From Chloroflexota bacterium (GTDB lineage: Bacteria; Chloroflexota; UBA11872; UBA12225): a stretch of DNA of 59,790 nucleotides. The stretch is taken from positions 1 through 59,790 of the forward strand of contig CANFGH010000006.1 in the NCBI GenBank assembly GCA_947446285.1. Direction: 5' to 3'. Made by a program: the position numbers and the translations under genes. Positions within the stretch are counted from its first letter, which is position 1. Every line of letters begins with the position of its first letter. Positions 3,145 to 21,722 of this stretch are shown here, one piece after another. The notes beneath the pieces were generated by a model, which worked only from the letters and a program-made list of their open reading frames with translations, ran no database searches and was not told the DNA's origin.

Positions 3145-3490
3145 TTCACGTTTTCGGCAGGGGTGATGACGGAATGTTTGGAGAAATCAATGTGGATCGG
3201 CACTGTCGTGCCCACGCTCGACCCTGCCATGATGTGCGCGCACGGTGTTTGAAGCATGGGATGGTTTTGGCGTGCGTCGAGAGTTGTCAGGTCCCGGGCG
3301 GCTGGTTGGCAGTGGCATCCTACTAGGTGCAGGTAATCCATGAGGGAGTGCCCGGTGGCTACACGAGTGGTGAGTGTCCCGTTTGAATTCGCACCGAGCG
3401 AAGTGCATTGATCACGTGATTCCGGCCGGGAAGCACGTGCGGCACCGTTCCTGATCAAGACAAGTGAACACAGACCCTAGGACATTCAGG

Positions 3491-10145: not shown

Positions 10146-12734
10146 GTGCGCAGGATCGGTGGTGGTCCGCCAGTGGTCGAGGACCGCTTGACCGCCGCGA
10201 TGCAACTCGCGTCGATTCTGGTCCTCGATGTCGGTGCAAATGACCGTCTCGGTCTGGGGCGACGCCTTGGGGTACCTGTGCCTTTGACAGAGCCTCGTCA
10301 TGCAAGTGGGCGCGTCCGTGAGTCCGAACTCTTCGAGAAGGCGTGTCGGGAACGCTTGGGGCGGCTCGACCTGACCTTGCTGCAGCAATTGCACCGGCTC
10401 TTGTCGAATGGGGCGACCCCCCTCGGGCCAGTGGTTGACGAGGCGATGCAGGATCGCGTTCGCCTTGGACTTAGTGGTGAGGAAAGTGACACTGCCGGGA
10501 GAGCGGTGTCGGGCGATACTTCCGATGCAGCACACTCGCCAATCCAACCCTTTGCGTCGTCGGGTGCCTTGCAGAAGTCGTCGGAACGCGTGCGCATCAG
10601 CGAGGATCAGGTCATCGCGGCTCTCGGTCCGGGCGGGTCGATCAATGACGCAATGGCGGGATACGAACCCCGGCCTGGTCAGGTTCGGATGGCGCGTGCC
10701 GTGACGCGGTCGCTCAACGATGGCTTGCGGTTGGTCATTGAGGCGGGTACCGGGACGGGGAAGAGCTTGGCGTATCTGGTGCCAGCGTCAATGTTCGCGG
10801 TCGCGAATGGCCGACGCGTCGTGATTTCCACGAACACGATTACGCTGCAGGAGCAGCTATTCAACAAGGACATCCCTGTCCTCCGCAAGGCGCTACCTCA
10901 CGACGTGCAAGTTGCGGTCCTCAAGGGACGCACGCACTACCTGTGCCTCAGGCGGTGGAGGCTCTTCCTTTCCAATGGGCTCGACGGTGCTCCCGAGCGA
11001 ATCCTGGCGGCGCGGATCGCGATCTGGGTGCGGAACACGGAGACTGGTGATCGCGGTGAACTCGCCGTTTCCGAGGCCGAGACGGCGATCTGGACGAACC
11101 ACCTCTCGGCGGATGTGATGCACTGCACGTCACGACTTTGCCGGGACAATCGCTCTGGTCGATGTTTTCTGGCCCGCGCCCGGCGCCGGGCCGAGGGCGC
11201 CCACCTGCTCGTCGTGAACCACGCCCTGCTGCTTACCGACCGCGCGATGGAAAACCCAGTCCTTCCCGAATATGACGATGTGATCCTGGATGAAGCGCAT
11301 CATCTTGAGGCGGTCGCAACCGATCAACTCGGAACCACGGTGAGTGCGCGCGAAATCGGGTTCGAACTGGCCACCCTGAGCCAACCGCAGGGCGGGACGC
11401 GTTTTGGAGGCACGGTTGCCCGGATCGCAACCGTATTTGTCGAAGCCGCCGGAGAACCCGGGCGCGAACAGATTGGGTCGATCACCGCGCCCATCCATGA
11501 GGCGTGCGAGGTGGCCCGCGTGGCGGTGTCAGCGCTTTTCGAGGCCGCGACAGGCCTGATGGACCGTGCCTCGCGAGGAGGCCGTGGGGATACGGTTGAC
11601 CGCGAGCTACGGTTGACGGAAAGCCATCGCGAAAGTGAATCGTGGGGCCCAGTGGCGATGGCGTGGGATGAAGCATCGGCGGCTCTCGCGTCGGTCGACC
11701 GTGGCTTGCAGGGCATGGTTGCGGCGTTTGACCCGTTCGTAGGGAGTTCGGAGACGGTTGATGATGCGGTAGCCGATCTGGCGGCAGCGAGACAGGCAAT
11801 CGGAGAGGCCCGTGAAAGCCTGACCCGCATCCTCGCGTCGCCTGATGACACGGAGGTCTACTGGATTGCCGGCGCTGGCCGCGAGATGACGATGCATGCC
11901 GCACCGCTTGCGGTTGACGTGCTGTTGCAGTCGAACCTGTACGAGCAGAAGTCGGCGATCATCATGACCTCGGCGACGATCCAGGTAGGCGGATCGTTCC
12001 GGCACTTCAGGCACCGCCTTGGATTGCCGCAGGACACCATGGTGCTTGAAGTCGCTTCGCCGTTCGACTACCCCAACCAGGCGCTATTGCTGGTACCTCG
12101 TGACTTGCCTGATCCGACGTCGCCGGCCCACGGCACGGTGATCCAGGACATCCTTGCTGGTGTGGCCAGTGCCATGAATGGCCGCACACTGGTGCTGTTC
12201 ACTTCGTATGCGTCACTCCGGGCGGCGCATGAGCACCTCCGCGAGATGACGCCACACCTGACAATCCTGGGGCAGGGAATTGACGGGCCACGAAGCGTGA
12301 TCCTTGACCGTTTCCGTGCCACGCCTAACGCAATCCTGCTTGGCACGAACAGTTTCTGGGAGGGCATCGATGTCGTCGGTGACGCACTGTCGTGCCTGGT
12401 GATCGTCAAACTGCCGTTTACGGTTCCGAGTGACCCGGTATTCGCCGCGCGGAGCGAGTTGCTTGAGGATTCATTCATGCAACTAGCGGTGCCCCAAGCG
12501 GTCCTTCGCCTGAAACAGGGGTTCGGCAGATTGATCCGGAGCGGCACCGATCGGGGGGTCGTGGCCATTCTCGATTCTCGTCTGGTGACGCGCCGCTACG
12601 GTCAGACATTCCTCGATTCGCTCCCTCCCGCGACCATCGTCAATTGTGGAGCGCGCGAGCTTGCTGGCTTGGTTGGTGACTGGATCACGAGGGTTCCTGA
12701 CAGTCAGGTGCCCGAGCCAGTTTCCGGATCCTGA
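10146..12734 (+). CDS. dinG: DinG-family Fe-S ATP-dependent DNA helicase
   Basis: EAGTGTGKS, four Fe-S cysteines (YLC…HC…LC…RCF), DEAHH, SAT, QGFGRLIR; GGAGGTG RBS before GTG 10146. Confidence 0.92.
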   Translation: MRRIGGGPPVVEDRLTAAMQLASILVLDVGANDRLGLGRRLGVPVPLTEPRHASGRVRESELFEKACRERLGRLDLTLLQQLHRLLSNGATPLGPVVDEAMQDRVRLGLSGEESDTAGRAVSGDTSDAAHSPIQPFASSGALQKSSERVRISEDQVIAALGPGGSINDAMAGYEPRPGQVRMARAVTRSLNDGLRLVIEAGTGTGKSLAYLVPASMFAVANGRRVVISTNTITLQEQLFNKDIPVLRKALPHDVQVAVLKGRTHYLCLRRWRLFLSNGLDGAPERILAARIAIWVRNTETGDRGELAVSEAETAIWTNHLSADVMHCTSRLCRDNRSGRCFLARARRRAEGAHLLVVNHALLLTDRAMENPVLPEYDDVILDEAHHLEAVATDQLGTTVSAREIGFELATLSQPQGGTRFGGTVARIATVFVEAAGEPGREQIGSITAPIHEACEVARVAVSALFEAATGLMDRASRGGRGDTVDRELRLTESHRESESWGPVAMAWDEASAALASVDRGLQGMVAAFDPFVGSSETVDDAVADLAAARQAIGEARESLTRILASPDDTEVYWIAGAGREMTMHAAPLAVDVLLQSNLYEQKSAIIMTSATIQVGGSFRHFRHRLGLPQDTMVLEVASPFDYPNQALLLVPRDLPDPTSPAHGTVIQDILAGVASAMNGRTLVLFTSYASLRAAHEHLREMTPHLTILGQGIDGPRSVILDRFRATPNAILLGTNSFWEGIDVVGDALSCLVIVKLPFTVPSDPVFAARSELLEDSFMQLAVPQAVLRLKQGFGRLIRSGTDRGVVAILDSRLVTRRYGQTFLDSLPPATIVNCGARELAGLVGDWITRVPDSQVPEPVSGS

Positions 12735-12806
12735 CCTGGAACCGAACGGGGGTGACGCGCGAAACGGGTGCCAGGGATGATCGCGCCAAGCCGGACCTGG
12801 AAGCGC

Positions 12807-12836
12807 TTGACAGTCGCAATGATGCCGACGTAGAGT
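12807..12836 (+). promoter_or_regulatory. Sigma70-type promoter of the aro leader/operon
   Basis: TTGACA (12807-12812), 18-nt spacer, TAGAGT (12831-12836). Confidence 0.65.
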
Positions 12837-12845
12837 CGGCTGGGT

Positions 12846-12947
12846 ATGAAGGTGATCACGCCGATTTGCGCTCCCGTTGGGACACTTGTCTTGGGCAGCG
12901 TTGTGCTTGGCGGGTTTTCCTTCTATTTTTTTAGTACCCCGGTGTGA
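12846..12947 (+). CDS. Putative Phe/Tyr attenuator leader peptide, 33 aa, MKVITPICAPVGTLVLGSVVLGGFSFYFFSTPV
   Basis: Short ORF below the ORF-track cutoff with an F-S-F-Y-F-F codon cluster, lying between a promoter and an intrinsic terminator upstream of aroF. Confidence 0.7.
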   Translation: MKVITPICAPVGTLVLGSVVLGGFSFYFFSTPV

Positions 12948-12984
12948 GTTGACGGCCACGATCAGGCCGGACGCGCACCGGGAG

Positions 12985-13013
12985 AGGCAGAGGGCAAATC
13001 CTCTGCCTTTTTT
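12985..13013 (+). terminator. Intrinsic terminator (attenuator) upstream of aroF
   Basis: AGGCAGAGG / CCTCTGCCT stem followed by a T run. Confidence 0.85.
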
Positions 13014-13114
13014 GTTGCCCGCCGGCATCCTTGACCGGCCCGGCTTGACACACGGGTGGGCGCAGGTGCCCGCGAACCACATGGGACGACCACGAAGAGG
13101 AGACTGGAACCGAA

Positions 13115-14188
13115 ATGATCATCAAGATGAAGCGTGGCGCGACCGATGCCCAGGTTGAGGAAGTCGAGAGGCGGATCATCGCGGAGGGGTATACGCCGAA
13201 CACGATCCGTGGCGTTGAGATGGCGGTGATCGCAGTGATCGGCAAGCGTCCCGAATGGATGATTGACACGGTGGAGTCGATGGCAGGCGTGGAGCAGGCT
13301 ATTCCGATCGAGAAGCCTTACAAGCTCGCCGCCCGGGATTTCCAGGCGGCGACCACCGAGATTCGTCTCGGTGCGGCGACGCTCGGGAGCAATGACGTTG
13401 TCATCATGGCCGGTCCTTGCACCGTTGAGACGCGTGACCAGTTGCTTGCTACCGCGCGGGGCGTGAAGGAACACGGTGGACACGTCCTGCGTGGTGGGGC
13501 TTACAAGCCGCGTTCGTCGCCATACAGTTTCCAAGGATTGGGCGAGGACGGCCTGAAGCTGCTTCAGGAGGCCCGTGAACTCTCCGGTCTGCCCATCATC
13601 ACCGAGGTGATGGAACCTGGCACGCTTGACACGGTGGTGCGCTACGCCGACGTCCTGCAGATTGGTGCGCGGAACTGCCAGAACTATCCACTGTTGCGCG
13701 AGGTGGGCCGTACCCGGACGCCGGTCATGCTGAAGCGCGGCCCGAGTGTGACGGTGGAAGAATGGATCATGGCTGCGGAGTACATCCTCCACGGCGGCAA
13801 CATGCAGGTGATGATGTGCGAGCGTGGGATCAAGACGTTCGAGAACTACACCCGGAACACGCTTGACATCTCCGCAATCCCAGTCATCAAGCGCCTCACC
13901 CACCTCCCAGTGATCGTTGACCCGAGCCATGGAACTGGCAAGTGGCACTTGGTCAAGTCGATGTGCCTGGCATCGGTGGCTGCGGGTGCCGACGGTGTCC
14001 TCATCGAAGTGCATCCAACCCCGGATACGGCGTTGTGCGATGGTGCACAGTCGCTGACGATCGAGAACTTTGCCGATGCCGCCCGGGCAATCGCCCAGGT
14101 TGCAGCGGCGGTCGGACGCTCAGTCCCCGGTTTCGAACCTGATGGGAGCCGCACTGGAGCTGCAGTCACGAGGGTTGCCGTGGCATGA
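13115..14188 (+). CDS. aroF: DAHP synthase, type I-beta, with N-terminal regulatory (ACT/ferredoxin-like) domain
   Basis: MAGPCTVE, RGGAYKPRSSPYSFQG, QIGARN, DPSHGTG, EVHPTPDTALCDG; GAGGAG RBS. Confidence 0.95.
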   Translation: MIIKMKRGATDAQVEEVERRIIAEGYTPNTIRGVEMAVIAVIGKRPEWMIDTVESMAGVEQAIPIEKPYKLAARDFQAATTEIRLGAATLGSNDVVIMAGPCTVETRDQLLATARGVKEHGGHVLRGGAYKPRSSPYSFQGLGEDGLKLLQEARELSGLPIITEVMEPGTLDTVVRYADVLQIGARNCQNYPLLREVGRTRTPVMLKRGPSVTVEEWIMAAEYILHGGNMQVMMCERGIKTFENYTRNTLDISAIPVIKRLTHLPVIVDPSHGTGKWHLVKSMCLASVAAGADGVLIEVHPTPDTALCDGAQSLTIENFADAARAIAQVAAAVGRSVPGFEPDGSRTGAAVTRVAVA

Positions 14189-15678
14189 GTGGCGAACGTG
14201 GTACCCAGCATCCCTGGACCGCTGAACCATCGTTCGTTCGCAATCCAAGCGACGCGGGGCTGCATGGCGGCATGCGGGTAGTGCGTGCCGTCGGGCACTT
14301 GTCGGGGGCACTGACCGTGCCCGGTGACAAGAGCATCACGCATCGGGCGGTGATGCTCAACGCCATCGCAACTGGAACCGCGACCGTCACCGGTGCCGGG
14401 CTCGGTGGCGATTGCCTGTCGACGGCTGGCGCGATGCGGATGCTGGGTGCGCGCGTGCGTCGTCGGTGGGCGTCGGGCGAACTGACTGACGACCTCCGCC
14501 GCGACCCCGTGACGGGAGTGGACACCCGGGACGACGCGGTGCTGCTGGTGGAAGGCGCGGGACTGCATGGGTTGCGGGAACCCGCGGATGTGATCGACGC
14601 CGGGAACTCGGGAACGACGGCCAGGCTGCTGACCGGCATTCTGTCGGGACAGCCATTCTTTAGCGTGCTGACTGGTGACGGTTCGCTTCGGGGACGACCG
14701 ATGGGCCGGGTGATCGCACCGCTTGCGGTCATGGGTGCCCAGGTTCGCGGACGCGCTGGTTCAACGCTTTTGCCGCTGTCGATCGCTCCCGCCCAATTGC
14801 AGGGGACGAGCATCGAGATTCCAGTGGCGAGTGCGCAACTCAAGTCGGCGCTGATCCTTGCCGGTCTGTACGCGTCTGGCGAGACGGTGGTCATTTCGCC
14901 CGAAGAGAGTCGTGATCACACCGAGCGGATGCTCACAGCGCAAGGGGCGGACGTGCGGACCCAGGGGATGGCGGTCCGGGTGCGCCGGCCGTCTGGTCTC
15001 CGGGCAATCGATGTTGATGTACCGGGAGATATCTCCAGTGCGGCCTTCTGGCTCGTGGCGGCCTGCATGCACCCGGATGCGACCGTGACGGTGCGGAATG
15101 TCGGGGTGAACCCGACCAGGACGGGCATCATCGATGCCTTGACCCTCATGGGCGCGACCATCACGGTGACGAACGAGAGGACGGTTGGAGGTGAGCCGGT
15201 CGCAGACCTGACGGCATCGTCGTGCCGGTTGCGTGGCGTGCACATCGGCGGACCGATCATCCCGCGGCTCATCGACGAGGTGCCAATCCTTGCGGTGGCG
15301 GCGTCGGTTGCTTCAGGCACCACGACGATCCGGGACGCGGCGGAATTGCGGGTGAAGGAAAGTGACCGGCTGCATGCCGTTGCGACCCACCTCGCAATGT
15401 TGGGAGTAGCGGTCTCGGAACATCCGGATGGGCTGACCATCACTGGTGGGCGCATCGCGGGTGGCGAGGTGGCAAGCGAAGGTGACCACCGCATTGCGAT
15501 GGCGCTCGCCATTGGTGCCCTCGTCGCAACCGGGCCGGTGCACATCAGCGGAGCGGCGGCCGTGGACATCTCCTACCCGGCGTTCTGGCCGACGCTGTCA
15601 AGAATCGCTCCGGGTTGCTTTGGCGATGCCCCAACGGGCCAGGGTGATCGTGGTGCGAAGGACGGGTCTGGGAAATGA
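14185..15678 (+). CDS. aroA: EPSP synthase
   Basis: PGDKSITHRA, GNSGTTARL, SAQLKSA, RDHTERML, ELRVKESDR, DHRIAM. Confidence 0.96.
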   Translation: MSGERGTQHPWTAEPSFVRNPSDAGLHGGMRVVRAVGHLSGALTVPGDKSITHRAVMLNAIATGTATVTGAGLGGDCLSTAGAMRMLGARVRRRWASGELTDDLRRDPVTGVDTRDDAVLLVEGAGLHGLREPADVIDAGNSGTTARLLTGILSGQPFFSVLTGDGSLRGRPMGRVIAPLAVMGAQVRGRAGSTLLPLSIAPAQLQGTSIEIPVASAQLKSALILAGLYASGETVVISPEESRDHTERMLTAQGADVRTQGMAVRVRRPSGLRAIDVDVPGDISSAAFWLVAACMHPDATVTVRNVGVNPTRTGIIDALTLMGATITVTNERTVGGEPVADLTASSCRLRGVHIGGPIIPRLIDEVPILAVAASVASGTTTIRDAAELRVKESDRLHAVATHLAMLGVAVSEHPDGLTITGGRIAGGEVASEGDHRIAMALAIGALVATGPVHISGAAAVDISYPAFWPTLSRIAPGCFGDAPTGQGDRGAKDGSGK

Positions 15679-16574
15679 GCATGGATGCGGTGCACGGCAC
15701 GCCGGGAAGGCTGGCAGGAGTAATCGGGTGGCCGCTGGGGCATTCGATCAGCCCGGCATTCCAGCAACCGGCGTTCGACGCGTGCGGTCTTGTGGTTTCC
15801 TACCGCGCAGTGCCCGTGCCGCCGGAAGACCTTGAGGAATTCATTGCCGGCTTGCGGACTTCGGATGCGCCCGTTTGGCTTGGCGTGAATGTGACGATCC
15901 CTCACAAGGAGGCCGTCGCGAAGCTGGTGGATGACGTCACTGAGGAGGCGAGACTCATCGGGGCCGTGAACACCGTGATCTGCAACGGTGGTCGGTTGAC
16001 AGGTCACAACACCGACGCCGAGGGGTTCCTTCGCGGCCTGACTGTCGATGGCAAGTTCGACCCGGCTGGGGCCAGGACGCTCGTGATCGGATCCGGAGGT
16101 GCGTCACGGGCGATCTGCGTCGCGCTGTTGCAAGCAGGTGTCCACAAGCTGTCCATTGCGAACCGGTCGCCAGAGCGTGCCGAGGCGCTGGTCTGGCACC
16201 TGCAAGGTGCGTTTCCGGGCCGGGAGATCGAACCATTGCCGTTTGACGCAGGGGTGTTCCGGGAACTGCTTCGGTCGACGGATCTGCTCGTGAACACGAC
16301 GAGCATCGGCATGGCCCACGGGCCGTCGCCGGAGACCTCACCGGTGCCAGTGGATGCGATTGGTCCGGGGTTGGTTGTCTACGACCTTGTCTACAATCCG
16401 GCGGAAACACCATTGCTCCGGGCGGCCCGGAAGGCTGGCGCGGTTCCGGTTGAGGGATTGCCGATGCTGATCTATCAGGGAGCGGCGAGTTTCAGGCGGT
16501 GGACGGGGGTTGTTGCGCCGGTGGATGTCATGTTCGCCCACGGTCGGCGTGCCTTGGCGGCAAGGAATTCGTAG
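15675..16574 (+). CDS. aroE: Shikimate dehydrogenase
   Basis: [44 protein letters not shown]. Confidence 0.95.
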
Positions 16575-16687
16575 TTCGCGGTTGGTCATCCCGAGAAGGG
16601 CACCGGCACTTCCACTCCACTCCGCCGTTTTGTATACGCGTCGCTTATGGCGCGATCAGGTCGTGGGCACCGGCGAGAGGGGTCCAG

Positions 16688-17851
16688 ATGGGCAATAGTT
16701 TCGGCACGATCTTCCGCGTCACGACGTGGGGCGAGTCGCATGGACGGGCGATTGGTGCGGTCATTGATGGATGTCCGTCACTGCTTCCACTTGATGAGAC
16801 GGACATCCAGCCTGACCTTGACCGGCGCGCGCCGGGGCAATCCCATCTGGTGACCCAGCGGAAGGAATCGGACACGGTCCAGATCCTTTCGGGAGTGTTC
16901 GAGGGACAGACCTTGGGTACCCCGATCAGTCTGCTGATCCCGAACGAGGATCAACGCAGCGGCGACTACCGTGAGGTCGAGCTGAAATACCGGCCGAGCC
17001 ATGCTGACTACACCTATGACGCCAAGTACGGAATCCGGGATTGGCGTGGGGGCGGCCGGACCAGTGCGCGTGAAACGGCTGCCCGTGTCGCGGCGGGTGC
17101 CGTTGCCCGCAAGGTTTTGGTACTCGGATTCGGTGTTGAGCTTGTTGCCTGGGTCTCGGCGGTTCACACCCATCAGGTGGAGTGTGATCCGCGGACCGTG
17201 ACACGCGAACTGGTTGACCAGACCCCGGTGCGCTGTCCAGATCTCGGGGTCGCTGCCGAGATGATTTCCGCCATTGAGCAGGCGCGGAAGAACGGTGATT
17301 CGCTCGGCGGTGTCGTGACGTGCGTGGTCCGCGGATGCCCTCCCGGTTGGGGCCAACCGGTATTCGATCGTCTCGAAGCCGATCTTGCCCGCGCCATGCT
17401 TAGTCTGCCGGCGACGAAGGGTTTCGAAATCGGGTCCGGTTTCGGGGGCACGATGTTGTCTGGATTAGTGCATAACGATCCGTTCTACATGGATGGCGCT
17501 CGTGTACGTACCCGAACGAACCGGAGTGGCGGTGTCCAAGGTGGCATCACCAATGGTGAAGATGTGCTGTTCCGGGTTGCGTTCAAGCCAACCGCGACGG
17601 TGATGCGTGAGCAGGAAACGGTGACGCGAACTCATGAGGCGTCGACGATTGCCGGTCGGGGACGTCACGACCCCTGTGTCCTTCCACGTGCGGTGGCATT
17701 GGTCGAGGCCATGACGGCTCTGGTGCTCGTCGATCACGCACTGCGACACGAGGCGACGCGTCCCCGTCATCCCGGTGAAGCCGGGTACTCGGTTCCCCCC
17801 GATGACTGGGGGGCAGTGTCTGACGATGATGGTGCGAGATACGGGCTGTGA
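16688..17851 (+). CDS. aroC: Chorismate synthase
   Basis: [40 protein letters not shown]. Confidence 0.97.
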
Positions 17852-18468
17852 ACTTTCACCATGTAGTGCTTGTCGGGTTGTCCGGGAGTGGAAAGTCGAC
17901 GATCGGACCACGACTGGCTCGTCGCCTTGATTTGTTGTTCATCGACACCGACAAGACGGTCGTCGCGCGCGCCGGATGTCCGATTGACGAAATCTTTGCC
18001 ACCCACGGTGAGACGACGTTTCGCACGTTCGAGCGTGAAGCGGTTCGCGAGGCCATCGCCGGTCCAAGATCGGTAATCGCCACCGGGGGAGGTGCGCCCG
18101 TCGACCCAGAGAACTTCCGTAAACTTTGGGAAGGCAATGTGGTGATCTGGTTGGACGCGCCGATGGAGGTCCTGATCTCGCGGATGGAGGGATCGCAGCG
18201 GGCAGGGCGGGAAAAGCGTCCGCTTCTGGCCCATGGTGGTGCGAGGCTTCGACTGCCGGCACTTCTCGAGGCACGTGCGCCGATCTACTTGCAGGCGCAC
18301 GTCAGGGTCGAGACCGGGGTTGTGCGTCCGGAAGTCGTGGTGACCGAGATCATCAGGCAGGTTCGTCCGGGTCAGGCACGCACGCGAAGTACTTCGCGCG
18401 TGATCGCATCCCCGTCTGCTTCACTGCGTCGAGGGAACGGTGGACAGGTCGGGAGGGCTCGCGATTGA
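17848..18468 (+). CDS. aroK: Shikimate kinase
   Basis: [32 protein letters not shown]. Confidence 0.93.
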
Positions 18469-19574
18469 TCACCGAATACCGCCCTCCGGCACCTGTCCCC
18501 GAGGCCTTCGTTGGCATCCCGACGCACCTTTCTTTCGGAAACGGTAACGTCGCTGGCCTTGGTGAGCGGATCACGGAACTCGGCTTCCGGGGCCGGGTGT
18601 TTGTGATTACCGATGACAAGGTCGGCCCTATGCACGGCCCCAAGGTTGTGGCGACCCTGGCGGATGCCGGGTTCGTACCGGAGATCCACGCGGTGCCGGC
18701 GGGTGAGGCGTCCAAGTCCCTGGACCGTGCCGCCGAACTGTACGCGTGGCTAGCTGCACACCGGGCAGAGCGCCGTGATGTGATCGTCGCGCTCGGTGGT
18801 GGGGTCGTTGGAGACCTGGGGGGGTTCGTGGCCGCGACGTTCCTGCGTGGCATGAGTTTTGTTCAAATTCCAACGACGGTCCTTTCGATGGTTGACAGTT
18901 CTGTCGGTGGGAAGACGGCGGTCAACCTTCCTGCGGGAAAGAACCTCGTCGGTGCATTCCACCCGCCAATCCTCACGCTTGTTGATGTCGGTCTCATCAC
19001 CGGGCTGCCGGTCCGCGAGGTGCGGGCAGGTTGGGCGGAGGTGATCAAGACGGCCTCACTCTTTGACCCAGCCCTTCTGGATGAGCTTGAATCGTTTCCC
19101 CTGGATGCAGTGCAGTCAGACCGGATGGCGGACATCCTTGAACGGACGGTGCGCTGGAAGGAACGGGTGGTTCACGAGGACCCACGCGAACGAGGCATCA
19201 GGGTTGTGCTGAACTTCGGCCACACAGTCGGGCATGCCATCGAGGCGACAACGGGGTACGGAACATACCTGCATGGTGAGGCGGTGGCGATCGGTCTGAT
19301 AGCGGCGTCACGGCTCAGCGTGCGTGCGGGGTTCCTGGACGCCGGTGTGGCCTCCCGTATCGAGGCCATGCTGGAACGGACGGGGCTCCCGACGCGATAT
19401 GACCCAACGTTCACCAATGCGGGCGCGGTTCTTGACCGCACGTTGACCGATAAGAAGGTCGAGTCGAACAAGGTTCGATGGGTCCTGTTGCGCGGCATCG
19501 GGCAGGTAGTGGTAACGGATGAGATCAGCGCTGACGTCATCAGGGACGTGGTCGAAGGATTGGTTCTTCGGTAG
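18465..19574 (+). CDS. aroB: 3-dehydroquinate synthase
   Basis: GGGVVGDLGGF, PTTVLSMVDSSVGGKT, LNFGHTVGHAIE, HGEAV; TTG start overlaps the aroK stop. Confidence 0.95.
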   Translation: MITEYRPPAPVPEAFVGIPTHLSFGNGNVAGLGERITELGFRGRVFVITDDKVGPMHGPKVVATLADAGFVPEIHAVPAGEASKSLDRAAELYAWLAAHRAERRDVIVALGGGVVGDLGGFVAATFLRGMSFVQIPTTVLSMVDSSVGGKTAVNLPAGKNLVGAFHPPILTLVDVGLITGLPVREVRAGWAEVIKTASLFDPALLDELESFPLDAVQSDRMADILERTVRWKERVVHEDPRERGIRVVLNFGHTVGHAIEATTGYGTYLHGEAVAIGLIAASRLSVRAGFLDAGVASRIEAMLERTGLPTRYDPTFTNAGAVLDRTLTDKKVESNKVRWVLLRGIGQVVVTDEISADVIRDVVEGLVLR

Positions 19575-19643: not shown

Positions 19644-20405
19644 ATGGTTGGAAATCTTCCGGGCATTCGCATCGGTGCAACGCTCAACATGGAGGCCGAT
19701 GACCCGACGTTGGGTGCGGATACGTACCGTTGTCGGATTGAGGACTTCACAGGCGACCGCCTGACGCTGACCTGGCCATCGAAGCGCGGTCAGAGCGTCA
19801 AGCTTGCGGTTGAGGACTCTGTCTCGCTTGCCCTGACGCAATCCGGGACGGACGGGCAACCGACGGCAACGATCTACCTTGAATGTGTTGTCGTGGACCG
19901 GTTGCCTCCGTCTCCGGGCAATCCCGTGGCATTGGTTGTTGTGCGTGTACTCGCTGCCGGCCGGCAGGCACCCCGGGGCTCGTACCGCCTTCCAGTGACT
20001 ATCCCGTTGACCGAGGCGGCTGTCCGCGAGAGTAGTTTTGGGGCCGCGACGTGGAAGCCAGTGTGCGGCTTCGTCCATGACATCAGTGGCGGTGGTCTCG
20101 GCCTCACGTTGGACGAGGAAGTGGCGCCGGGCCTGAAACTTCGGGTTCGTTTCCCGGTTCCCATGGGTTCGGGGGAGATGGCGGTAACTGTCGAAGTGAT
20201 GAACGTGATTGACGTGAACCCGGGCGAACGCTTGTCCAAGTTCAAGGTCGGTGTCAAGTTCGACGACGCGACAGGTCTCCAGAGGGAACGCATGGCCCGG
20301 GCAGTGCATCGGTCACAAGTGGAGAACCGGCGACGTGACCAAGCCGCGGGACGCCTGCACGTTGCAGCCATCGAAACCGCGGAGGATGAGGTCGCGGCCC
20401 CATAG
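19644..20405 (+). CDS. PilZ-domain c-di-GMP-binding protein with YcgR/flagellar-brake-like architecture
   Basis: RxxxR (RGSYR) and DxSxxG (DISGGG) motifs, an N-terminal beta-rich domain, and C-terminal GVKF. Confidence 0.8.
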   Translation: MVGNLPGIRIGATLNMEADDPTLGADTYRCRIEDFTGDRLTLTWPSKRGQSVKLAVEDSVSLALTQSGTDGQPTATIYLECVVVDRLPPSPGNPVALVVVRVLAAGRQAPRGSYRLPVTIPLTEAAVRESSFGAATWKPVCGFVHDISGGGLGLTLDEEVAPGLKLRVRFPVPMGSGEMAVTVEVMNVIDVNPGERLSKFKVGVKFDDATGLQRERMARAVHRSQVENRRRDQAAGRLHVAAIETAEDEVAAP

Positions 20406-20693: not shown

Positions 20694-20837
20694 TCCTCTG
20701 GCTTCGTTGCGCGTTGTTGACGGCCGGATCAAGGGCAACCTTGCTTCCGGCCGTGACTGTTTTTGTGGCCCTGGCAACAAAGCACTCGCCGGGAACTTGC
20801 ATCCGGTGCACCCGGGAGTGGCCGGTACAATGTCTCC

Positions 20838-21722
20838 ATGACGGCATCTGTACCAACCGCACCAACCGCACCAACACGGCTTGGCCAGGCTTTGGATGAT
20901 TACCGAGCCCGGATCTCTCCTGATGATCATGCGCGTCTACGCAAGTTTGTGACCTGGCTTGGGGTTAGCGTAACCGTGGAAGCCGTACAGGCGTACAAGA
21001 TCGAGGAGTTCCTTGCCCAACAGATCAAGACTTCGATGTCTCCCCGTGCGTACCTTGCCCCACTGAAGACGTTTTTCGCGTACGTCTTGGAACAGCGCGT
21101 TATTCCAAGTGACCCGATGAAGAATGTCCGGTTACCGAGGACTGGGGTCGCTGCGGTCAAGAAGAGCGCGGCGGCGGCTGCCGCAGCAGCGGCGGCGACT
21201 GGTTCACCAACCCACGTGGCAACGACATCCGGGACGTCACGCATCGAAGATGTGGAATACGTCAGCCGTGCCCGACACGAAGAGATGAAGAAGGAACTCG
21301 ACCGGCTTCAAGTCGACGAGAGGCAGCGCATCAGCGCACTCCTCGAGGAGGCGATCAAGGACGGCGATCTTTCCGAGAATGCCGGATACGAAGACGCCAA
21401 GATGCGCCAAGGGTTGCTTGAGGCCAGAATTCGCGACCTCGAGAACAAACTCAGGCACGTGGCATTGATCGAGGATCTGGACAACGACGGCGCCACAATT
21501 GGTGTTGGAAGCCGGGTCAAGTTGCGTGAGGTTGCCACGGATGACGAAGTGGAATACCAAGTCGTAGGGCCGGAGGAGACCGACCCGCGGCTTGGAAAGA
21601 TTTCCCATCGCTCACCGGTTGGCAAGGCCCTCATCGGCAAGACCGCCGGCGAGGAGACCGACGTGGTCACCCCTGGTGGCACCACCCGTTACCTGATCAT
21701 TTCGGTTGAACGGGGGGCGTGA
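20838..21722 (+). CDS. greA: Transcription elongation factor GreA with N-terminal integrase SAM-like domain
   Basis: GDLSENAGYEDAK, IGVGSRV, ISHRSPVGKALIG; about 130-aa N-terminal extension ending LKTFFAY…DPMKNVRLPR plus an Ala-rich linker. Confidence 0.9.
   Translation: MTASVPTAPTAPTRLGQALDDYRARISPDDHARLRKFVTWLGVSVTVEAVQAYKIEEFLAQQIKTSMSPRAYLAPLKTFFAYVLEQRVIPSDPMKNVRLPRTGVAAVKKSAAAAAAAAAATGSPTHVATTSGTSRIEDVEYVSRARHEEMKKELDRLQVDERQRISALLEEAIKDGDLSENAGYEDAKMRQGLLEARIRDLENKLRHVALIEDLDNDGATIGVGSRVKLREVATDDEVEYQVVGPEETDPRLGKISHRSPVGKALIGKTAGEETDVVTPGGTTRYLIISVERGA

Follow-up and report, generated by a model that had tools for sequence, protein, structure and literature searches.

A putative Phe/Tyr leader-peptide attenuator upstream of the shikimate operon in freshwater Chloroflexota, with a copy upstream of tyrS

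Leader-peptide attenuation of the textbook kind is known mainly from Proteobacteria and a few Actinobacteria. The candidate described here lies upstream of aroF, the first of six shikimate-pathway genes, in a contig of an uncultured Chloroflexota bacterium (CANFGH010000006.1 of assembly GCA_947446285.1; all 59,790 nucleotides (nt) of the stretch analysed are called the window below). It resembles the pheL-pheA, trpL, hisL and thrL leaders in having a run of cognate codons, an intrinsic terminator preceded by a stop codon and, probably, the position of the ribosome as the signal. In the Escherichia coli leaders the stalled ribosome frees a segment for the 5’ arm of the terminator, a pairing that is recovered by folding, whereas no such segment was found here. 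Also unlike the enterobacterial leaders, the hairpin before the terminator ends 1–5 nt from it.

The nearest described case is the aroR-aroF leader of Corynebacterium glutamicum, in which, as here, a short open reading frame (ORF) with Phe and Tyr codons lies upstream of a DAHP synthase operon. Mentz et al. 2013 (PMC4046766) predicted a leader peptide, aroR, with Phe-Tyr-Phe for aroF (cg1129); read-through reportedly rises on Phe limitation and not on Tyr limitation (Neshat et al. 2014 as reviewed in PMC11802643). The known likeness is one of gene context and Phe/Tyr codon content. The Chloroflexota leader is from another phylum, its ORF is near-leaderless, five of the six codons in its cluster are aromatic, no antiterminator was found for it, and it has a paralog upstream of tyrS with Tyr codons only.

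Two other systems are similar in how the leader ORF begins. The C. glutamicum ilvB leader, reportedly made without a ribosome-binding site (Morbach et al. 2000, cited in PMC4046766), has no Shine-Dalgarno sequence, like the aroF leader, and serves other amino acids and another gene. The sensing ORFs of mycobacteria that are reported as polycysteine and leaderless (bioRxiv 10.1101/834739) also begin where the transcript begins or close to it, with no Shine-Dalgarno sequence, again for other amino acids and genes. Literature searches, with subscription journals mostly outside their coverage, found no paper on such a Chloroflexota leader or on a leader-peptide attenuator of tyrS.

Judged from sequence, the leader is with a probability of about 85% a ribosome-mediated transcription attenuator of aroF-aroA-aroE-(aroC-aroK-aroB). 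In uncultured freshwater Chloroflexota it would then be a control on entry into the shikimate pathway and, for two genera, on tyrS too. Lineages with next to no leader sequence in common have the same architecture, which is without the alternative hairpin that defines the classical family.

The aroF leader: promoter, ORF, hairpins and terminator

The leader comprises the following features, all on the forward strand of the window.

12807..12836, + strand: sigma-70-type promoter, TTGACA (12807-12812), an 18-nt spacer and TAGAGT (12831-12836), with 10 of 12 consensus matches
12846..12947, + strand: leader ORF of 33 codons plus TGA, near-leaderless, with a predicted 5’ untranslated region of about 3 nt
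12848..12923, + strand: predicted hairpin A, in which the start of the ORF pairs with sequence reaching to the first Phe codons in the minimum free energy (MFE) fold
12915..12932, + strand: regulatory codon cluster TTT TCC TTC TAT TTT TTT (F S F Y F F)
12938..12982, + strand: hairpin B, with an outer stem (12938-46 / 12974-82) and an inner stem (about 12953-57 / 12965-69)
12983..13013, + strand: intrinsic terminator T, with a core stem (12986-93 / 13000-07), the loop GCAAAT and a U6 tract (13008-13)

The promoter, already proposed in a preliminary description of this DNA, was the single promoter-like site that a promoter scan found in 12400-13400, where shuffled sequences would be expected to give 0.2. 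The ATG at 12846 is 9 nt past the -10 hexamer and has no Shine-Dalgarno sequence, as that description had it, and the ORF appears leaderless. The 33-codon ORF also stands as first described, with aromatic codons confined to the FSFYFF cluster – F24, F26, Y27, F28 and F29 are the only aromatic residues of a hydrophobic peptide. A cluster of this density is unique among the terminator-adjacent frames of the genome (3.42 Mb in 217 contigs, 62.2% GC). Our own scan of the whole genome for ORFs ending no more than 110 nt upstream of a strong terminator-like hairpin gave 181 frames, and one of them, the aroF leader ORF, reached at least four F/Y/W per seven residues. Recognizing the leader would add a missing small gene to the annotation and account for a conserved “intergenic” stretch of 270 nt.

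Two hairpins follow the cluster, both of which had been noticed from the sequence at the outset and were found again here. The outer arms of hairpin B, CCCGGTGTG (12938-46) and CGCACCGGG (12974-82), enclose the inner stem, and the stop codon TGA (12945-47) overlaps the 5’ arm. Hairpin B begins about 8 nt past the first base of the last aromatic codon. Terminator T has the arms GGCAGAGG (12986-93) and CCTCTGCC (13000-07), which form an 8-bp GC-rich stem extendable to 12983-13010, and was recovered both by our genome scan and by the alignment fold. The 178-nt leader has an MFE of -85.7 kcal/mol (z = -5.9), and none of 200 shuffled sequences was as stable.

Both hairpins show compensatory changes in relatives. 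In the fold of an alignment of 10 sequences from the family, 8 of the 27 pairs of B and T show compensatory changes. Five of the 16 pairs of hairpin B do so, all among the inner pairs, while the outer stem is invariant in all 10 sequences; in terminator T the changes are at alignment column pairs 63/84, 68/79 and 71/76. Rfam covariance models run on 12000-14000 gave 6 matches at E values up to 10, all to unrelated families and far below the gathering score, and families of the Phe_leader or Trp_leader type were unmatched.

The bases just after the U-tract (13014-13021) are conserved among the aroF and tyrS leaders of the family as (G/C)TTGCC, and as GTTTG in others. In read-through transcripts this UUGCC could pair with the GGCAG of the 5’ arm of T.

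Conservation before aroF and a copy before tyrS

The closest public records are freshwater metagenome-assembled Chloroflexota: a metagenome-assembled genome that carries the label Thermoflexus hugenholtzii and whose DAHP synthase is 100% identical to that of the window, a hypolimnion bin labelled “TK10”, and a deep bin from Lake Baikal. DAHP synthase is present in 40 of the 41 sampled relatives. The preliminary description had proposed looking in relatives for a conserved short ORF with an F/Y cluster and a terminator. A rule-based script found a short aromatic-cluster ORF and a terminator upstream of DAHP synthase at 27 of the relatives’ 30 loci, and the remaining three have a match to a covariance model of B and T directly upstream of the gene. 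The script missed these three because the gene start was extrapolated for enzymes lacking the N-terminal domain.

When 80 loci from public genomes were added to the 30, the script scored the arrangement in 58 of 110 DAHP synthase loci, a count that includes duplicates and in which there are several false negatives. The same layout is seen among the 80 in Limnocylindria, in other Chloroflexota groups and in two Rokubacteria records, and it can be called widespread in Chloroflexota on the strength of these sequence comparisons. The covariance model of B and T matches 31 of the 41 relatives and all 13 genomes of the family; about half of the matches outside the family are paired with known DAHP synthase positions. 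Across the 41 genomes the model matched DAHP synthase leaders, tyrS leaders and a small number of plain terminators; leaders for other amino acids were absent from its matches.

What persists across lineages is an F/Y/W cluster on the C-terminal side of the peptide and the RNA behind it. The peptide tails themselves vary by lineage – ...FSFYFFSTPV, ...FFYAFRNPV, ...WYYYFSRPV, ...AYYFSRFGVTPG, ...YYYLFIEPEGPA, and the 11-residue M..YFYFRCPA; in Limnocylindria the ORFs have only 11 codons. Even within the genus, the N-terminal two-thirds of the peptide diverge, and a conserved nucleotide motif there is read in differing frames. The T stem motif GCAG(A/G)(A/G)G is common to several classes. In other lineages hairpin B differs in sequence and is at the same position.

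The geometry is conserved. Among 39 distinct leaders, the stop codon is within B in 38 and the spacer from B to the GC core of T is 1–5 nt in 37. The distance from the start of the last aromatic codon to B is 8 nt in 18 and 3–10 nt in 37, the value of 3 arising where the script’s B takes in an extra Phe codon or an extension. For 41 of 43 rows the script chose a similar promoter ahead of the leader ORF. In 24 of the 43 the start derived from this promoter is 2–10 nt before the start codon chosen by the script, which makes leaderless or near-leaderless ORFs common; one genus instead has a GTG led by a Shine-Dalgarno sequence about 50 nt into the transcript.

A strict motif built on the arms of B occurs twice in the genome. 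The second occurrence is on another contig, outside the window:

contig C21, about 3160-3365 (locus L111:260-465): tyrS leader, with TTGACG, an 18-nt spacer, TATAGT and an ATG 9 nt later

The ORF of this leader has 32 codons and ends in ...DLYSYRIPV, and it is followed by the same B arms and by nearly the same terminator as in the aroF leader. About 40 nt further on is a gene whose product matches the Pfam class-I W/Y tRNA synthetase family and the TyrRS C-terminal domain. With the covariance model, a copy of the tyrS leader is found in each of the genus’s 5 genomes, and in 2 genomes of a sister genus. In these 7 leaders the aromatic residues conserved throughout are two Tyr only, at -7 and -5 from the stop, positions that match Y27 and F29 in the aroF leader.

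The 14 other tyrS loci examined have no such leader, and the tyrS leader thus seems to have arisen by duplication of the aroF module in this lineage, with the codons re-specified. The pair would amount to a natural specificity swap. That the identity of the codons tracks the gene that is presumably controlled is the strongest in-silico argument for a ribosome that reads tRNA charging. A further DAHP synthase gene of one relative (L148, G008:C34:119100-121170, minus strand; PF00793, 4.1e-91) has its own leader with the B and T module, ending in ...WYRYAYFRRPV.

A different arrangement is seen at two tyrS loci of one genus in the same class (L169 and L171). In these loci tyrS is preceded by a near-leaderless frame of 22 codons that include Trp and one Tyr (...RMRWAYRRPAVDA), followed by a GC-rich hairpin with no U-tract. 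Control there may be different, and possibly translational.

How the leader could act

The stop codon is inside B and the last aromatic codon about 8 nt before it, so a ribosome stalled with an aromatic codon in its A site would leave B closed, further translocation would start to open it, and a finishing ribosome would melt it. On the proposed mechanism, transcription would start about 3 nt before the ATG and a ribosome would translate the 33 codons. With ample charged Phe- and Tyr-tRNA, it would enter and unwind B and come to sit on the stop codon; meanwhile RNA polymerase would make T, which would fold and end the transcript at about 13013. With charged tRNA short, the ribosome would wait at the foot of B, on the F/Y codons; B would stay closed, and more polymerases would read through into aroF. 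The direction of regulation, and the step from a closed B to a T that does not work, are inferred.

Three kinds of link from B to T can be considered. A steric link is a tentative suggestion from the geometric model: a closed B, 3 nt from the stem of T and held against the stalled ribosome, would hinder completion of the T hairpin at the polymerase. A weak or long-range pairing missed by folding is about as possible, and what remains of our expectation goes to something else. In hairpin-dependent termination the terminator stem must zip to its base in the exit channel, drawing in upstream RNA. A closed B would be 45 nt of rigid hairpin, tethered by 3 nt and pushed up against the stalled ribosome, whereas a B melted by the ribosome would make about 28 nt of single strand available to T.

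The broadest form of this proposal, which we regard as rather doubtful, is an antiterminator-free attenuator that acts as a portable module: closed B would block the lower base pairs of T in the exit channel, melted B would give slack, and the whole would have been copied before tyrS and re-specified from Phe/Tyr to Tyr. The model in which closed B means read-through predicts read-through when the leader is not translated at all, unlike the superattenuation of the trp type. If B alone drives the switch, ribosomes would have a second physical means of acting on intrinsic terminators.

Attenuation of E. coli pyrBI also works with no antiterminator hairpin, a ribosome close to the polymerase preventing the terminator from folding. 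The pyrBI leader ORF runs through the terminator, whereas here the ORF ends at 12945-47, 38 nt before the terminator core stem at 12986, and extends neither into nor through T. A pyrBI-like closeness would therefore need B to take up the spacer.

The two Rokubacteria loci (L083 and L089) have the same front half – the aromatic cluster, B about 9 nt past the last aromatic codon, and the stop in B – followed by 20–38 nt between B and T. Complementary segments, read by eye, form a chain there (1:2, 2:3, 3:4, 4:5). Closed B (1:2) would leave 3:4 as an antiterminator, and a ribosome on segment 1 would free 2 for 3, so that T (4:5) forms. In folds of these loci 3:4 is paired in every state, and the switch itself is not displayed. 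By analogy, a closed B should mean read-through in the lineage of the window too.

Several results weigh against an attenuator of this kind, or against the way in which it is proposed to work. No such leader was found at many of the Chloroflexota DAHP synthase loci among the 110, including those of Ardenticatenaceae, Promineifilaceae and Leptofilum. A simple terminator scan of 12400-13400 listed no terminator-like site, T included. In its favour, metatranscriptome contigs cover the leader and bridge the terminator into aroF or its 5’ region (12809-13313, 12859-13084 and 12872-13150, from three studies), but such contigs (4 runs, 3 studies) attest presence only, without ends, strand or level, and may come from DNA carry-over. 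Another contig (X2, 12607-12859) joins the 3’ end of the upstream helicase gene to the leader ORF, with the promoter in between; transcription from further up may thus in part continue into the leader. The argument for the steric step is purely geometric. Folding adds the results that follow.

An antiterminator was sought by masking the footprint of the ribosome, in two sizes, cutting the transcript before the 3’ arm of T and recording how far the 5’ arm of T was sequestered. Such folding is nearest-neighbour and at equilibrium, and kinetic or tertiary solutions fall outside its reach. In the window the mean pairing probability of the T 5’ arm was 0.54 in ribosome-free RNA, 0.43–0.62 in stalled states and 0.61 with the ribosome at the stop codon, with no pairing specific to stalling. 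Over the 39 leaders the mean sequestration was 0.59, 0.51 and 0.57, respectively; the stalled state exceeded the stop state by more than 0.1 in 9 leaders, and the stop state exceeded the stalled one in 12. The same pipeline applied to E. coli thrL, trpL, hisL and pheL gave 0.42–1.00 when stalled and 0.07–0.49 at the stop. As it recovers the helix in these four leaders, the negative result here is meaningful. Full-length masked folds predicted T (P at least 0.94) whatever the state of the ribosome in 37 of 43 rows, which says little, because E. coli trp would likewise form its terminator.

The partners that RNAduplex finds for the T 5’ arm vary by lineage. Complementarity between the early ORF and T was not above that of dinucleotide shuffles (mean z -0.17, n = 29, with a further 10 leaders too short in their 5’ part; the Limnocylindria ORFs have 11 codons only). 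Consensus folds cut before the 3’ arm of T (6 aroF and 7 tyrS leaders) paired the T 5’ arm, and only weakly, with sequence directly before the regulatory codons, which a stalled ribosome would cover. A trp-type 2:3 hairpin between the B 3’ arm and the T 5’ arm was rejected as geometrically impossible, since B ends 1–5 nt before T.

The preliminary description had likened the leader to pheL/trpL-type attenuators, left its antiterminator pairing unassigned and suggested folding the alternative structures. Its regulatory logic holds up – the leader has the Phe/Tyr codon cluster and the terminator of a classical attenuator, and both are conserved. The structural part does not: the masked folds of the window and of the 39 leaders modelled no base-paired antiterminator, which a member of the classical family would be expected to have.

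The alternative that survives best, although we think it unlikely, is a classical attenuator after all, with a base-paired antiterminator that is weak, long-range or kinetic and was missed by folding. Its first candidate is an “extended B”, in which the pyrimidine-rich F/Y tract pairs with the purine-rich 5’ arm of T. Truncated, ribosome-free folds of the window do pair 12927-35 with 12987-94, and the ribosome-free fold of Limnocylindria leaders has a long imperfect helix made of the codon tract, the spacer and the T 5’ arm. However, a stalled ribosome covers these bases, which would give read-through in the absence of translation and not on stalling, and the tyrS paralogs have no pyrimidine tract yet keep B and T; extended B was rejected as a starvation antiterminator on both counts.

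The second candidate pairs 12860-69 with 12987-95, freed when a stalled ribosome covers the 3’ arm of hairpin A. It appears with a wide ribosome mask in the stalled states F24, Y27, F28 and F29, and in the closest relative (L002) the early ORF is complementary to the T 5’ arm at -17.7 kcal/mol (z = -2.1). The persistence of the T stem motif across classes hints at a second constraint. Set against this are the shuffle test over the early ORFs and the lack of a consistent contrast between stalled and stop states in 39 leaders, with a method that works on four from E. coli.

A more distant alternative, and a quite improbable one, is that a protein or other trans-acting factor binds B and decides termination, or that translation or stability of the aroF mRNA is the main target of the switch, which the leader ORF only modulates. 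The outer stem of B is invariant in sequence in the family although it could covary, and no RNA-only antiterminator was found. But the invariant 5’ arm is doubly constrained, as the conserved Pro-Val-stop is encoded there too, and the B of other lineages keeps its position with a different sequence. The 100 nt between T and aroF are unconserved even within the genus, and a trans-acting factor would leave unexplained why codon identity tracks the gene.

That the short ORF encodes a genuine small hydrophobic protein, or is a frame that arose by chance, with T the terminator of the helicase gene or a constitutive stop and with no sensing, is highly improbable: the hydrophobic peptide of the window and the RNA-library contig from the helicase gene across the promoter to 12859 would fit it, but the peptide is conserved only in the aromatic cluster and last residues, its N-terminal part is not hydrophobic in close relatives, other lineages have 11-residue ORFs, the module recurs with different upstream genes and before tyrS and a second DAHP synthase gene, the identity of the aromatic codons tracks the downstream gene, and the frame is the sole one of its kind among 181.

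The shikimate genes and their surroundings

Six shikimate-pathway genes lie downstream of the leader, in the order first described and with assignments borne out by Pfam.

13115..14188, + strand: aroF, DAHP synthase of type I-beta with an N-terminal ferredoxin-like domain (PF00793, 3.3e-76; PF18152, 1.1e-15)
14185..15678, + strand: aroA, EPSP synthase (Pfam), its start overlapping the aroF stop (ATGA)
15675..16574, + strand: aroE, shikimate dehydrogenase (Pfam), its start overlapping the aroA stop
16688..17851, + strand: aroC, chorismate synthase (Pfam), with a likely ATG at 16688 in a frame open from a GTG at 16499
17848..18468, + strand: aroK, shikimate kinase (Pfam), its GTG overlapping the aroC stop
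18465..19574, + strand: aroB, 3-dehydroquinate synthase (Pfam), with a likely TTG at 18465 overlapping the aroK stop

Four of the five junctions between aroF and aroB are 4-nt overlaps. Control of the whole six-gene operon by the leader is inferred from these overlaps, and a gap of 113 nt between aroE and aroC intervenes. In the aroC frame read from 16499, the Pfam match starts at residue 72.

The gap (16575-16687) runs from the aroE stop to the likely aroC ATG, which is preceded by GAGAGGGG. An internal promoter or other signal is possible there.

Upstream of the leader, a DinG-like helicase gene (Pfam) ends at 12734. The stretch from the terminator to aroF (13014-13114) contains the hexamers TTGACC (13032-37) and TTGACA (13046-51) and GC-rich inverted repeats, and no second promoter in it passed the promoter scan.

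After aroB there is a gene for a PilZ-domain protein with a YcgR-like N-terminal domain (19644-20405). Further on, an open frame of 319 residues (20763-21722) has GreA/GreB domains that span residues 166–316 only; either the real start is further in, or the protein has an N-terminal extension with no Pfam match at E values up to 0.001.

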